Source: Schmidtea polychroa
Lineage: Eukaryota
Assembly (NCBI GenBank): GCA_044892525.1
Contig: CM097885.1
Span: 10,418,001-10,482,000 of the forward strand
DNA length: 64,000 nt
Reading direction: 5' to 3'
Every line of letters begins with the position of its first letter. Position 1 is the stretch's first letter. Positions 57,641 to 64,000 of this stretch are shown one piece after another. The position numbers and the translations under genes are program-made. Under the pieces are notes generated by a model. The model did no database searches and was not told where the DNA came from. It saw only the letters and a program-made list of their open reading frames with translations.

Positions 57641-58067
57641 GGTTTCCAATGAGACGTTTAAGGCACTATTTTTAGATCACTCTTTGATCAAGGTATAATT
57701 ATTAAAAGATCAAATTAACAAATGACCTTACATTTTCTAGACAGAGCTGTTTTAATAATTTTCTAATATAAATATGGCATGAAAAAATAATTAAAATTAA
57801 ACACAGCTATATTTTATAATTATCCAAAAACATTTACACTTAGTTTTGACATTTTTCAAAATTTTTATAAATCACTGGGCGCATCCAGCTTCATTTCCCC
57901 ATAACTTTTTAATCATTATTAGAATTATTCTATAAATTTAATAAAAGTTTTGAATATATTTGTCATTTTAATTTGAAACACTGAACAATAAATTAAAATC
58001 TTATTAAAACTGACAAGTTACTAATTACCTTTGGCACGTACTAGTGATATGAATAATAATAAAGATG

Positions 58068-58216
<149 letters not shown>

Positions 58217-58256
58217 ATAAACAGCACAGGCTTTGTGATACCCAGTGCAAATCTCA

Positions 58257-58297
58257 ATAGTAGACTAGTTTCGAGCTTTTTGCTCTCATCAGTACTT
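58257..58297 (-). ncRNA. Minimal type-I hammerhead ribozyme (minus copy)
   Basis: The minus strand reads AAGTA CTGATGA GAGC AAAAA GCTC GAAAC TA GTC TACTAT. Confidence 0.85.
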
Positions 58298-58352: not shown

Positions 58353-58394
58353 GTAGTGCTGATGAGAGCCAAAAGCTCGAAACTAGTCTACTAT
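58353..58394 (+). ncRNA. Minimal type-I hammerhead ribozyme (plus copy)
   Basis: GTAGTG CTGATGA GAGC CAAAA GCTC GAAAC TA GTC TACTAT: intact core, 4-bp stem II, palindromic ACTAGT stem III and 6-bp stem I. Predicted cleavage is after C58388. Confidence 0.9.
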
Positions 58395-60239
58395 TGGGAT
58401 TTGCACTGGGTATCACAAAGCTTGTAATGTTTATATTATTCAAGTGTAAGACATCTAACAATAAAAATTTTTAAAAAAGTCATTTTATATTTTTAAAATG
58501 GGCCTTCATCCAAAACGTTTGCCCAGGCCTGTTATAAATATTGTAAATGTATTATCCAAAAATGTTTATTAAAGATTTCAAAAAAACTTTCAAAATAAAC
58601 GCCTCATTTCAATAAAATTATCATTTAGAAAAAATAAAATACAATATTTTTTTATTCATTAATGTTTTTTGTAAAATTATTTGTTTTAATAAAACGTAAA
58701 TTACAAGTTATAATCAGAATTTTTTGTCAATATTTTTTTCTTTTGATGGAATAAAAAAAGATTGAACAAATCCAAATGTTTTCTATTTTTTGATAATATC
58801 ATTTTGAAAATTTTATTTATTGGTTTTTGTTAACTGTTTAAATATGAAATTGAATATTTTTAATTTCTCTATAAAAATATTTTTTTACAATTTCACTATA
58901 AATTAGAACCGAGATTACGTTTAGCAATATTTGGGAATTTTTAATTTAGTTATAATCCTCAATAAGGACAGAGATAATTTTCAAATAAGTATTTTCTATT
59001 TAGCCCTCTGACTGCAGATATTTCTGGGGAAATTTGACATATTTTCATATTTTTGCAAACTGCTTTAGCTCACATAAAAAAATTGCATCATAACCGTCTT
59101 TGAGCTAAACCCTTTATAAACTTTAGAAAATGACACTATATTAGTCTTTATCGTAGTGTAATGTGTACTCCTCAGATATAAACCCTTTGGTAATTTATAA
59201 TGGTTACGCAATGTATTTATTACACAATACTCTACGTTTATGCTGTATTTGTCACCAAAGGTCGAAGGTCAATCATTAAACAATAAACAAGTAATGTAAT
59301 TATTATATGACAGTATGGGATTGTATCTCCCTAGGAAGAAGCACTTGGTATTACGCAATGGCTATATAAGTGATTTATTACACGACAGTCGACCTTTATG
59401 CTATGTTTTACACCAAAAGCCTAAGGTCAATCATAGACACATTATGTCATTAATTTAAATAAATTCCATATCATATATTTTATATTACTTTGTTTTAACT
59501 ATGTATACCGGTCCAACTGTCGAAAGGCTAAATAAATACATGTTTTTCTTTTCCTAGAAATTTTTCATTGAAATTCTGAGGATTTATTAGGACATGTCGT
59601 GTTTCTCAATTTGTCAATATGAATATTAAATTTAATTTCTTTTTAAAAAAAGTAACATTTGTTCAACATACGGTTTTCAAATATCCGGATTTTCTCTAAC
59701 CACGGTTATTGGAAATTTTTTTATTAACACTAGATTTATGGACTGAGCCAATTTGATTGATTTAAAATTCTATTGCTATATATATATATATACAGGCCCC
59801 TCAAGAGGGGGGGGGTCAGGACGGTTTTTTGACATGGGCCTCTTAATTTAGCGGGCCCACAAACAGCACTATTTTGATACTACACCATACGATCAACGAG
59901 TTTATTTTGCACTTTTACGTATAGCAAAAAAAGCAAAAATCTAATTTAAATATAGAAGGCCTTTTTTTTTATGTAAATTTCACTTTTCCTCAAATTTTCA
60001 TTTTTTAAAACTATATATATATATATATATAATATTGATTTTTTATTTTTAGATTACATATGTTGCTTTTTAGATACGTCATGATATATAGGTAAATATT
60101 AATTACTCTCCTCTTCCAACTACCTCATTTCGCATATCGAATTAAGAATACCTATTTTACGGCTATTTTTACCCGTAAATCTAATGTTAATTATGCATGT
60201 ATACCGAATAACCGTATGAAAATAAAAGAATAATATTAA

Positions 60240-60625: not shown

Positions 60626-60719
60626 AGTAAGTAGGTAGATAGTAGCCTACGGCAGCAATGACCCCCCCGGGGGGGGGGTTCTGCTGCCGTAATTTTTTTG
60701 CTGCAACTTTTGATTACGC

Positions 60720-61990
60720 AATTTTTCACACTATAGTGAGGGGGTCTCGATGGTCCTGGGATTTTCAATACAAAAAAATTTTTTCTATACAAAAACGATG
60801 GTCCTGGGATTTTCAATACAAAAAAAATTTTTCTATACAAAAATCCGACTACCACTAAAAAAGCATGGAATTTTCAGACTATAGTGAGGGGGTCTCGATG
60901 GTCCTGGGATTTTCAATACAAAAAAAAAATTTTTCTATACAAAAACAATGGTCCTGGGATTTTCAATACAAATAAAATTTTTTCAATACAAAAAGGCGGT
61001 CTCACTAAAAAAGCATGGAATTTTCAGAATATAGTGAGGGGGTCTCGATGGTCCTGGGATTTTCAATACAAAAATTTTTTTTCTATACAAAAATCCTACT
61101 ATCAATAAAAAAGCCAAGGATTTATCACGCTATAGTGAGGTGAGTCTCCTTGGTCCTGAGAAATAGGTGTTCTACACTAAAAAACGTGGTAATTTAAGGT
61201 CTCGGGATATTTTCAATACAAAAAGCTGGTCTACACTAAAAAGCATGGTAATTTAAGGTCTCAGGATATTTTCAATACAAAAAGCTGGTCTACACTAAAA
61301 AAGCCAAGGATTTTTCAGACTATAGTGAGGTGAGTCTCCTTGGTCCTGAGAAAAAGGTGGTCTACACTAAAAAACGTGGTAAATTATTCAATTAAAGTAA
61401 ATAATGGTCCAAATTTTTAAATTAAAGTAAATAATGGTCCTAAAAATTAAATTACAGTAAATTATGGCTCAAATTTTTCAATTAAAGTAAATTAAGGTCC
61501 TAAAAATTAAATTAAAGTAAATTAAGGTCCTAAAAATTAAATTACAGTAAATAATGGTTCTAAAAAATTAAATTAAAGTAAATTATGGTCCAAATTTTTC
61601 AATTAAAGTAAATAATGGTTCTAAAAATTAAAATTAAAGTAAATTATGGTCTAAATTTAAAATTAAGTAATCAATGGTAAAAAATTTTAAATAAGTAATA
61701 ATTTTTAAATAAGTAAATTAAAGTAATAATTTTTAAATAAGTAAATTAAAGTAATGTAATAAGTAAATTAAAGTAAGATTTTAAAATTTATTAACAAAAA
61801 GTTGAAGGTGTTTGAGAATTGAAATTTTTTAATGGAAATTTTTATGAAATATTTTTTTAAGTAATTTTTAATGGAAATTTTTATGAAATATTTTTTTAAG
61901 TAATTTTTAATGGAAATTTTTATGAAATATTTTTCAATGATAATTTTAGATGGAAATTTTTAAGATAACTTTTAATGAAAATTTTTATGA
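60720..61990. repeat. Subterminal tandem arrays of the Polinton
   Basis: ~150-bp unit TATAGTGAGGGGGTCTCGATGGTCCTGGGATTTTCAATAC (60732, 60880, 61030; variants at 61131 and 61321). ~30-bp AATTAAAGTAAAT.ATGGTCC.AAA unit (61390-61680). 38-bp TTTTTAATGGAAATTTTTATGAAATA unit (61826-61990). Confidence 0.92.
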
Positions 61991-62102: not shown

Positions 62103-62450
62103 TTATTCATCCAATATTTGCTTGTAATAAGCTCTTCTTAATTCTGCTAGTAAAATATGAACAACTTCTTTCATCTTATATTCTTGGCAGCATCTACATC
62201 TAAACGGACATGGTAATTTCATCGGATCCATACATACTTCACAATCGTCTATGCATTTAAATCTTGATTCTTGTACAGATTCGAAATGTCTTCGTATAAG
62301 TTCTTCTATATTGATCCCCGTTAATTGCTTGATTCTATAAGCTAATAATTCCGGAGCACAATATGAAAGTCTGTTCTTTATATTCGGGAACAATTCTTCC
62401 ATCTTCGTTAATATAGTCTGGAATATGTAAGCTTGCTTATCGTCATCCAT
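62103..62450 (-). CDS. Polinton accessory protein, 115 aa, Cys-rich (CxxxCxxC...CxxxCxCC)
   Basis: Intact ATG ORF with AAAATG context, 63 bp downstream of the TBP-like gene on the same strand. Confidence 0.7.
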   Translation of the reverse strand: MDDDKQAYIFQTILTKMEELFPNIKNRLSYCAPELLAYRIKQLTGINIEELIRRHFESVQESRFKCIDDCEVCMDPMKLPCPFRCRCCQEYKMKEVVHILLAELRRAYYKQILDE

Positions 62451-62513: not shown

Positions 62514-62990
62514 TTAACTTAATAAATATTCCAATATTTCTTCATTTGTTGTGATATTTATAGTTAATGATTTAATGAATTTCTGAATTTCTTGAATTTG
62601 ATTAAAATAATCAAATGTTTTAATCCCTAATATAACAACTTTCCCACTTGAAAAAACATTTACACATAGGGGGTTATACTTGAGAATACGTAAAGCTGGA
62701 AATATTTCAGGCTCATAGTAACTATCGGTTTTCCTTGACAATGCATTTAAATCAATGCATGTACCCATATCTAACGTTAATGTAATTGATTGGATTTGTA
62801 AATCTTGAATCTGATATTTGAGATCGCCTTCCTGTAATGGTTTCTTACATCCCATTATCCTACATTTCCCGCTCTTGAAGAATAAAATTGGATATTTTCC
62901 ACTTCTGTCCACGACATGTTGAGGTTTTCCTGATGGGAACTTCATTCCATTTACTACACATCTTCCTCTATAATTAATGTTGCTGATCAT
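62514..62990 (-). CDS. TATA-binding-protein-like protein, 158 aa, element-encoded
   Basis: ATG 62990. Two TBP repeats: ISNI...ILFFKSGKCRIMG and DLQIQSI...IDLNALS...YYEPEIFPAL...VNVFSSGKVVILG. Compare canonical LQNIV...LIFSSGKMVCTG and FKIQNMV...YEPELFPGL...LIFVSGKVVLTG. Confidence 0.88.
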   Translation of the reverse strand: MISNINYRGRCVVNGMKFPSGKPQHVVDRSGKYPILFFKSGKCRIMGCKKPLQEGDLKYQIQDLQIQSITLTLDMGTCIDLNALSRKTDSYYEPEIFPALRILKYNPLCVNVFSSGKVVILGIKTFDYFNQIQEIQKFIKSLTINITTNEEILEYLLS

Positions 62991-63040
62991 TCTAATTATT
63001 GTAATTATAAACAAATTAAATAAAATAATTTAATTAAAAA

Positions 63041-63664
63041 ATGGAATTAAGAAATGACGCAGTATATCAAATAGTAGGACCTAGTGGAAGCGGGAAAACT
63101 TTATTTGTATGTAATTTATTACAATCAAACATGTTTAAATCTAAATTTAATAAAATATATTGGCATCGAGGTGCAGATGAAGAACATGGATTGACTCAAA
63201 ACAGTTTCTGTAAATTAAAAATGACAATAATTAAAGGATTTGATAAAAATTGGTCATCTAGATTACGTCAAGGTGATGTTATTATTATCGATGATCTGTA
63301 CCAGGAAGCAAATAAAGAAAAAGATTTTAATAATTTATTTACAAAAATCAGTAGACATTGCGGAGTTACAGTTATTTTCATTACACAAAATCTTTTTCAT
63401 CAAGGTGGAAGTCATAGAACACGTAATTTAAATGTCCAATATTTAATTATTTTCAAAAATCCTAGAGATCAAACAATAATAGATTTTCTTGCGAGACAAG
63501 CTTATCCAAATAATAGAAAATTTTTGATTGATTCATTCCAAGATGCAACAAAAATTCCTCATGGATATTTATTTTTTGATTTTACACAACAATGTCCAGA
63601 TGATATGCGTATTAGAACTGATATTTTTAATATAAACGGTGTTACGATTTATAAACAAAACTAA
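63041..63664 (+). CDS. Genome-packaging ATPase (A32/FtsK-HerA family) of Polinton/adintovirus type
   Basis: Walker A GPSGSGKT, Walker B IIIDD, SRH arginine finger, ITQNLF, FKNPRD, PHGYLFFD and RIRT; intact 207 aa. Confidence 0.93.
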   Translation: MELRNDAVYQIVGPSGSGKTLFVCNLLQSNMFKSKFNKIYWHRGADEEHGLTQNSFCKLKMTIIKGFDKNWSSRLRQGDVIIIDDLYQEANKEKDFNNLFTKISRHCGVTVIFITQNLFHQGGSHRTRNLNVQYLIIFKNPRDQTIIDFLARQAYPNNRKFLIDSFQDATKIPHGYLFFDFTQQCPDDMRIRTDIFNINGVTIYKQN

Positions 63665-63683: not shown

Positions 63684-63836
63684 ATGTCATTTAAAAAAGT
63701 AGTTGTTAAAAATCTTCCAAGTGTTTCGAAGAAAATTACCAAGAAAACAAAACGTACAAAGAAAACAAAAAGTGGATCAAAAAGTACAAAAAGTACAAAA
63801 ACTAAGAAAAAAATCAAGAAGTGGATCAAATTATAA
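63684..63836 (+). CDS. Very basic 50-aa K/T/S-rich protein (candidate virion core / DNA-condensing protein)
   Basis: MSFKKVVVKNLPSVSKKITKKTKRTKKTKSGSKSTKSTKTKKKIKKWIKL*. It fills the gap between the ATPase and the next ORF and is below the ORF-track cutoff. Confidence 0.6.
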   Translation: MSFKKVVVKNLPSVSKKITKKTKRTKKTKSGSKSTKSTKTKKKIKKWIKL

Positions 63837-63858
63837 ACAATCCGTCGCGTAAATAATA

Positions 63859-64000
63859 ATGAAATTTGAACGGAGCTTACCATATTTTAATGCTTTAATA
63901 AAGGCACCAAATTCGAAACGAATATCAATTTTACAGTCTTTTCCATCATTTGTTATTGATGATTTACTTGAAGTTATTATAAATGTTGTCCGCGGTAATG
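63859..64000 (+). CDS. Small Polinton/adintovirus protein typically found after the ATPase (partial, runs off window)
   Basis: MKFERSLPYFNALIKAPNSKRISILQSFPSFVIDDLLEVIINVVRGN...; the E...N...GN pattern recalls the small conserved Polinton gene next to the ATPase. Confidence 0.65.
   Translation, partial: MKFERSLPYFNALIKAPNSKRISILQSFPSFVIDDLLEVIINVVRGN

Follow-up and report, generated by a model that had tools for sequence, protein, structure and literature searches.

A shortened, rewired TBP and a candidate late-gene promoter box in a Polinton of Schmidtea polychroa

Within the window, the 64,000-nt stretch of Schmidtea polychroa DNA analysed here, a Polinton encodes a TBP of 158 aa. We propose that this short TBP, rewired on its DNA face, recognises a YATAAACA box and directs host TFIIB together with RNA polymerase II (Pol II) to late genes, a reading to which we give a probability of roughly 0.6. 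We infer binding, TFIIB contact and timing, and the link between protein and box is a co-occurrence in sequence with one independent contrast. An initial annotation had described an asymmetric TBP with a trimmed first repeat. The motif losses and the short lobe that it noted stand, whereas the extent of the lobe-1 loss and a "near canonical" second repeat do not. The finding exceeds lobe asymmetry, namely a rewired mini-TBP together with a candidate private promoter.

Table 1. Features discussed in the text (window numbering)
Feature	Position	Strand	Basis or remark
Left terminal inverted repeat	60630..61738	.	partner at 76077-77204, beyond the window
115-aa Cys-rich ORF downstream of TBP	62103..62450	-	same-position homologues in several subfamilies of the genome; not assigned to a family
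Polinton-encoded short TBP, 158 aa	62514..62990	-	ORF and Pfam TBP
YEPEIFP stirrup of the C-lobe, including F97 as well as E93 and E95 (equivalent to the yeast TFIIB contacts E186 and E188)	62697..62717	-	sequence; accessible text of PMC7221094
Loop replacing basic helix H2, residues 49-61, 13 residues short	62808..62846	-	model, hhalign
Loop replacing helix H1, strand S2 and N-stirrup, residues 11-24	62919..62960	-	model and alignment
TATAAACA, candidate late box in the TBP/ATPase gap, 35 nt before the ATPase ATG	63006..63013	+	scan
A32-like packaging ATPase	63041..63664	+	Pfam Pox_A32, E=8e-7
TATAAACG, second box, within the ATPase 3' end	63631..63638	+	scan
TATAAACA within the ATPase 3' end, 34 nt upstream of the ATG at 63684	63650..63657	+	scan
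Small lysine-rich ORF, 50 aa	63684..63836	+	without Pfam match
TATAAACA, 27 nt upstream of the pX-like ATG at 63859	63832..63839	+	scan
108-aa adenovirus pX-like gene, start	63859..64000	+	Pfam Adeno_PX, E=2e-6; continues beyond the window end

The element and its short TBP

The element spans 16.6 kb and carries terminal inverted repeats of 1,128 nt at 96%. Pfam detected an rve integrase (E=1e-8), whose gene is interrupted in this copy, and the packaging ATPase. The major capsid protein was found indirectly, by an hhalign match (84.6%, E=7e-6, 304 columns) to a PF21738 protein. The long terminal repeats, the integrase, the A32 ATPase and, on this indirect evidence, a double-jelly-roll capsid identify the element as a Polinton. 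It also holds two putative minor capsid genes and a putative polymerase, a 1,374-aa ORF at the expected place in which endonuclease VII is the sole domain recognised; the 50-aa lysine-rich ORF is possibly a core protein. The TBP and ATPase genes lie head-to-head across a 50-nt gap. For the 115-aa ORF the searches returned only two near-identical homologues and no Atlas match. Neighbours of short-TBP genes, examined in 80 of the 83 metagenome loci found and on one viral contig (mostly short contigs), were genes of Polintons: the ATPase cluster was seen in 25 loci, pX-like genes in 20 and the integrase in 16, this element counted. The gene after TBP varied widely among the metagenome loci and was at times the ATPase.

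Further observations concern the surroundings of these genes. In the subfamily of this element, two minor-capsid-like genes stand in tandem (L021:5409-7443); no protease gene was seen in this copy, and one is present in other subfamilies (L152, L155, L157). An ORF of 75-85 aa that begins with Met-Gly overlaps the integrase start in another frame (L153:5541-5765 and equivalents; 64185-64439 in window numbering); a box lies 8 nt before it in several copies, and it possibly encodes a myristoylated virion protein. At 58053-58210 of the window, a long (AAT)n microsatellite is flanked by an 86-nt inverted repeat (58211-58296, 58355-58440).

No TFIIB gene was recognised by Pfam among the element ORFs, a search that a very divergent TFIIB-like fold would escape. 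Pfam returned 21 TFIIB matches in the genome, and those inspected are host loci (Brf-like, an intron-containing TFIIB, intronless duplicates). Intronless TFIIB paralogues of ~300 aa were rejected as a Polinton-borne partner, the inspected copies being segmental or tandem host duplicates among Polinton fragments. At least 13 of them, 34% identical to the canonical-type protein, lie at G000:C3:38.2-39.1 Mb and C1:23.8-24.2 Mb (L113, L114, L120, L121). Divergent paralogues of TBP, several in number, occur in the host as well, and two (L129, L131) lack introns; such an expansion of basal transcription factors is unusual.

The product of the short TBP gene matches the Pfam TBP profile with E=3e-16, over residues 64-130 only, and all 35 PDB sequence matches of the ORF are TBPs. 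An AlphaFold2 model was built from a 101-row alignment comprising the query and 100 of 120 listed homologues, 20 fragments or over-long rows being left out, and reached a pLDDT of 95. The model retains four of the five strands of lobe 1 (residues 2-10, 25-28, 35-38 and 42-48) and a complete lobe 2, and has no helix across residues 1-61. On yeast TBP 66-240, 145 of residues 1-147 superposed with a Z of 12.7 and an rmsd of 2.4 A. Profile match and modelled two-lobe saddle place the protein in the TBP fold family PF00352. Helices H1 and H2 and the short strand S2 are predicted to be gone from lobe 1, and the concave sheet is predicted to be kept, so that the DNA-binding saddle would be nearly whole. 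In the model, the asymmetry that had been described holds for the two helices and not for the saddle. Likewise, repeat 1 had been said to keep only its first strand and FFKSGK..MG, which the four modelled strands and the extent of the superposition do not confirm.

Alignments agree with the model. The ORF has no segment resembling IAL..RNAEYNPKRF, as the initial annotation stated, and its claim that H2 is missing fits both the helix-free residues 1-61 and a 13-residue gap at H2 in the hhalign comparison with cellular TBP. The stretch equivalent to N69-to-F99 has 19 residues here and a family median of 21 (19-26, n=101) versus 30-33 in four cellular TBPs, which leaves the H1 segment 9-11 residues short; that equivalent to G125-to-N159 has 21 residues here, also the family median, versus 34-35 in the four cellular TBPs. 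The H1 segment is short (19-26 residues) in 101/101 family rows and the H2 segment (19-26) in 94/101, with 30-36 residues in the other seven. Both replacement loops were modelled as ordered (pLDDT 96-98), and a conserved Pro23 occupies the place of the intercalating Phe99. Loop residues are conserved among the 101 sequences at F18 (92), P23 (100), C48 (92), P51 (75), L57 (66) and I61 (81).

The short lobe 1 is a trait of the family, judged from the genome copies and from most of the 100 homologues. We looked for a full repeat 1 in other copies, and the 150 genome matches that were scored, out of 4,206 candidates, were all equally short, being 99-100% identical over residues 1-157/158; a single stop was found among them. 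Other genome subfamilies, 51-62% identical, share the short lobe. In distant pairs among seven subfamily copies, lobe 1 has a pN of 0.19-0.27 versus a pS of 0.52-0.82, and in three close subfamily copies its dN/dS is ~0.25, like that of lobe 2; these values indicate that lobe 1 is under purifying selection. Intact genome copies, family segment lengths and purifying selection rule out a copy-specific deletion or decay.

DNA-facing residues, the TFIIB stirrup and longer relatives

In mapping the DNA face we included a few additional residues that we take to be contacts in yeast TBP. Contact residues (yeast numbering) were otherwise taken from Table 1 of PMC12529657 and from the accessible text of PMC1636458. 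In lobe 1 the replacements are V71N (98 of 101), F99P (100), V122R (99) and T124M (101); in lobe 2 they are N159S (97), V161T (93), I194R (100), V203C (101) and L205N (101). Kept are N69 (99), F116 (100), F190 (100), F207 (101) and, in 87 rows, P191. The L114 position is I or V in 79/101 and Leu in this copy. Three of the four intercalating Phe are therefore retained and the fourth, F99, is Pro in 100/101. Repeat 2 had been called near canonical. Its motifs YEPEIFP, F97, F113 and SGKVV are indeed all in the ORF, but its DNA face is not canonical, the five lobe-2 replacements each occurring in 93-101 of 101 rows. The short TBP lacks the full set of four intercalating Phe, the N69/N159 pair and the hydrophobic face of a canonical TBP, and is predicted to lack the lobe-1 helices. 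Bending and stand-alone affinity may be weak, given the loss of one intercalating Phe and of N159.

The positions I194, V203 and L205 are those of the altered-specificity mutant TBPm3, according to the accessible text of PMC1636458, and all three are changed in the short-TBP family. In that part of the paper they are changed to F, T and V in TBPm3, which accepts G at position 2; the short TBP carries R, C and N there and the box keeps A at position 2. The location of these changes counts against a simple TBPm3 parallel: they sit in lobe 2, facing box positions 1-2, and the odd base of the box is at position 7. Reverse binding on the pattern of TBPm3, in which lobe 2 would occupy the TG end of the opposite strand, was considered and is disfavoured, as transcription would point away from the late genes.

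The C-lobe E-x-E is found in 95/101 sequences and an acidic pair in 100/101, from sequence alone, which makes recruitment of host TFIIB by the kept stirrup plausible. This bears on a quite improbable alternative, in which the viral TBP reads the box but needs an element-encoded partner, such as the neighbouring small ORF lying over the helix-less face, or a helper-virus polymerase. Most viral TBPs are accompanied by their own TFIIB (accessible part of PMC7221094), the herpesvirus vTBP requires five more factors (accessible part of PMC12529657), and the 115-aa ORF follows TBP in several genome subfamilies. A fixed partner fits poorly, however, with the variable gene after TBP and with the ordered replacement loops, and the host-type E-x-E is kept in 94% of the family, whereas the first stirrup Glu is present in ~40% of giant-virus TBPs in the available text of PMC7221094.

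A profile search of 1.84 billion representatives yielded longer relatives, of which we chose 34 by eye from 150 listed (P0197, P0213, P0214 and 31 others, ~150-220 aa). Their H1 and H2 segments have medians of 30.5 and 29.5 residues, near normal, and a model of one has both helices (Z 17.8, 175 aligned, rmsd 2.4 versus yeast TBP). F99P, V122R, T124M and L205N are shared by 34/34, I194R by only 10/34 and V203C by only 11/34. The median net charge of the H2 segment is -1 in these 34 versus +3.5 in four cellular TBPs. A quick tree of 68 rows sets the 26 short forms apart by one branch (SH-aLRT 95) and the cellular TBPs by another (SH-aLRT 100); the long forms lie between, in an order that the tree does not settle. 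The genomic context of the long-helix relatives was searched for and not found, and hence we do not count them as Polinton genes. Rewiring of the DNA face and loss of charge probably preceded the trimming of the helices, and a single, later helix loss fits the tree if it is rooted on cellular TBPs.

Contacts between TBP and TAF1-TAND1, the Mot1 latch and NC2 also involve other TBP surfaces. Escape from regulators is plausible and would be partial, given those other contact surfaces. Such an escape from N-lobe regulators has been proposed for viral TBPs generally (accessible text of PMC7221094). That helix loss caused it, as had been suggested for this protein, is probably not the case: the longer relatives keep H2 with a non-basic segment, which makes the link from helix loss to regulator escape probably secondary.

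Distribution of the YATAAACA box

We scanned the 100 nt before the first ATG of each gene, removed regions more than 80% alike and compared the counts with 200 dinucleotide shuffles; the TBP-positive loci are interrelated, and their upstream regions were de-duplicated at 80% identity only. ATAAAC occurs upstream of 86/96 packaging, capsid and integrase-type genes, which we treat as putatively late from their gene type. By class, it precedes 23/23 ATPase genes (shuffle mean 2.3, max 6), 16/19 pX, 13/16 integrase, 15/17 minor capsid, 7/8 pVII-like and 12/13 major capsid genes, and all six classes exceed the maximum of the shuffles. Before TBP genes it is at shuffle level (6/62, or 5/59 minus the three off-family rows L024, L103 and L104), as it is before the polymerase (1/16). 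On the reverse strand it was found in 3/96 regions. Upstream of the late-type genes there are 99 ATAAAC sites versus 20 ATAAAT, 19 ATAAAA and 8 ATAAAG; T or C precedes the motif in 82/88 sites and A follows in 77/88. Before the ATPase the box lies 32-38 nt from the ATG in 18/23 cases, the remaining five being at 17-18 and 48-50 nt. Some boxes stand 8-20 nt from the first ATG, those of pVII-like genes at ~100 nt. In the element part of the window there are four boxes, each 27-53 nt before an ATG, and the one between TBP and ATPase is present in 20/20 near-identical copies.

Could the box be a by-product of conserved amino acids? This is disfavoured, because the ATPase box is intergenic and because the codon spelling is fixed where the box lies in coding DNA. 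The C-terminal [YHND]K[QH] of the ATPase has the box spelling in 18/18 cases versus 0/3 elsewhere in the ATPase and 2/7 in the polymerase, and the Ile-Asn of pVII-like genes in 7/7 versus 4/42 in the polymerase.

A TBP-less Polinton lineage of the same genome, with similar GC, has the box in 3/42 regions, and its reference copy at 1/9 genes. The TBP HMM matched 0/10 loci of this lineage and 10/10 of the TBP lineage. This contrast is a single lineage, which differs in many other genes too; viral and prokaryote collections gave no further TBP-less control loci. Ordinary TATA motifs stand upstream of 32/62 TBP genes (shuffle mean 15, max 24), and none was found in the 100 nt upstream of the TBP gene of this copy. 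The altered DNA specificity proposed in the initial annotation is now better supported, by the near-invariant DNA-face replacements and a matching non-canonical box.

Three readings would detach the box from transcription by the viral TBP. An unlikely one holds that the box is a deliberately weak TATA for host TBP or a paralogue, the viral TBP being a TFIIB competitor or a repressor of early or host promoters. Host TBP does bind TATA DNA with C(-25) (PDB 1qn3), TATAAACG retains 27% of the activity of TATAAATA in a plant assay (PMC10005294), TBP loci of the cellular type number at least six in the host, and a TFIIB decoy would need the E-x-E, which is kept. Yet ATAAAC predominates over its three alternatives, and a weak TATA serving the host would not have to settle on a single spelling; a decoy leaves the nine near-invariant DNA-face changes unexplained, and the box is rare in the TBP-less lineage. 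C:G pairs in TBP-bound TATA turn Hoogsteen and so avoid a leucine (PMC4402545), and C at box position 7 would suit host TBP poorly.

Taking the viral TBP as a DNA-bending factor for replication, integration or packaging instead of transcription is very improbable in our view. Its gene adjoins the terminal repeat and the packaging ATPase here, and the canonical DNA face is partly lost, but the TFIIB stirrup is conserved, the gene position varies among relatives, and the box, which tracks gene starts, was not found in this copy's left terminal repeat. Forkhead proteins recognise the consensus RYAAAYA, which ATAAACA fits, and they also accept GTAAAC. That the box is a host forkhead (FOX) site and its link to the viral TBP coincidental is nevertheless scarcely credible, with GTAAAC in 4/96 regions versus ATAAAC in 86/96, the reverse-strand forms in 3/96 and 0/96, and a fixed spacing before the ATPase.

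Three further gene types have the box in front of them, one of 160 aa without assigned family (9/12), one resembling phospholipase A2 (8/9) and one of leucine-rich secreted type (5/5); these (L066:83-646, L097:1084-1521, L054:1918-3327 and cluster mates) are candidate late genes. In the high-copy TBP-less lineage (L144-L147, L162-L177), many genes have an A/T run that ends in TAAAATG or TAAATG directly on the start codon; this resembles the late starts of poxviruses and may be mere translation context.

A proposed late-promoter switch and known systems

In our preferred reading, the viral TBP would be made early, in relatives by host TBP acting on the ordinary TATA of the TBP gene. It would then bind YATAAACA in normal orientation before packaging, capsid and integrase genes, in preference to TATAAAAG, and its kept E-x-E stirrup would bring host TFIIB and Pol II to these particle-building and integrase genes. 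The C at box position 7 would face lobe 1, which carries F99P, V122R and T124M and, in most family members, I or V at L114. The helices would have been shed after the basic regulator-binding surface was already lost. The spacing counts against the switch: were it TATA-like, a box 33-37 nt ahead of the ATG would allow a 5' leader of only a few bases. In coral polintoviruses, capsid genes are reported to cluster apart in expression.

The short TBP resembles cellular TBP (PF00352) in its two-lobe saddle, N69, F116, F190, P191, F207, the C-lobe E-x-E and the C-lobe helices, and differs in being ~28 residues shorter, without the basic H2 patch, with Pro for F99 and with nine DNA-face replacements. 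By analogy it would work like the herpesvirus vTBPs (KSHV ORF24, EBV BcRF1, HCMV UL87; TATTWAA box), outside that family. A nuclear DNA virus, a polar DNA face and a late-gene box are common to both, and in the accessible text of PMC12529657 the late box read by ORF24 is non-canonical, and the V122, T124, V161 and L205 positions are polar in that protein. The same text describes ORF24 as a 752-aa multidomain protein of a six-factor complex, with all four Phe, no TFIIB-binding Glu pair and a predicted TFIIB clash, whereas the short TBP consists of nothing but a core of 145-160 aa, in which the Glu pair is retained. Herpesvirus proteins gave only weak structural matches (E ~0.005-0.01), and Pfam recognised no further activators of the herpes type among the element ORFs, several of which are small and without family.

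Giant-virus and poxvirus TBPs (accessible parts of PMC7221094 and, for VITF-3, PMC12917281) share a viral TBP fold in which the N-lobe regulator signature is not conserved; in these systems, however, TFIIB and polymerase are virus-encoded and the TBP stirrup varies. The TBP models concerned have at least 186 residues (27 BFVD matches at E<=0.001). A 44-kb viral contig (L024) carries a canonical-type 182-aa TBP among large-DNA-virus genes and is outside the short-TBP family. MELD/adintovirus-like maps (Starrett et al., PMC8502044, bioRxiv 697771) label a TBP-like gene in a Polinton-related element; the accessible text gives no structure, residue or promoter analysis of this gene, which may or may not belong to the short-TBP family. 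For TBP in Polinton-like elements, the literature within our scope, which excluded paywalled text, Repbase notes, figures and bioRxiv supplements, gave this figure-legend label only. The Polinton papers searched for TBP or TATA mention neither, and ATAAAC is not mentioned in the papers checked for the motif.

A broader version of the proposal is tentative, and we hold it at somewhat less than even odds: widespread animal-type Polintons would carry a one-protein, sigma-factor-like Pol II switch, with the smallest working TBP, a private YATAAACA box, direct use of host TFIIB and a two-step origin. With the genes head-to-head as in this genome, that box might in addition turn TBP expression off. 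The proposal bears on how Polintons, which rank with the most widely distributed of integrated DNA viruses, time their capsid genes. If one small factor and a box of 8 bp suffice, late-gene control becomes testable, and the box could serve as a mark for late-gene annotation. The short-TBP family, with its longer relatives as intermediates, offers a natural deletion series of a TBP that apparently folds without lobe-1 helices. It would also be a natural altered-specificity TBP seemingly built for host TFIIB, unlike the herpesvirus and giant-virus versions. If the proposal is true, these elements gain a one-protein switch for their late genes.
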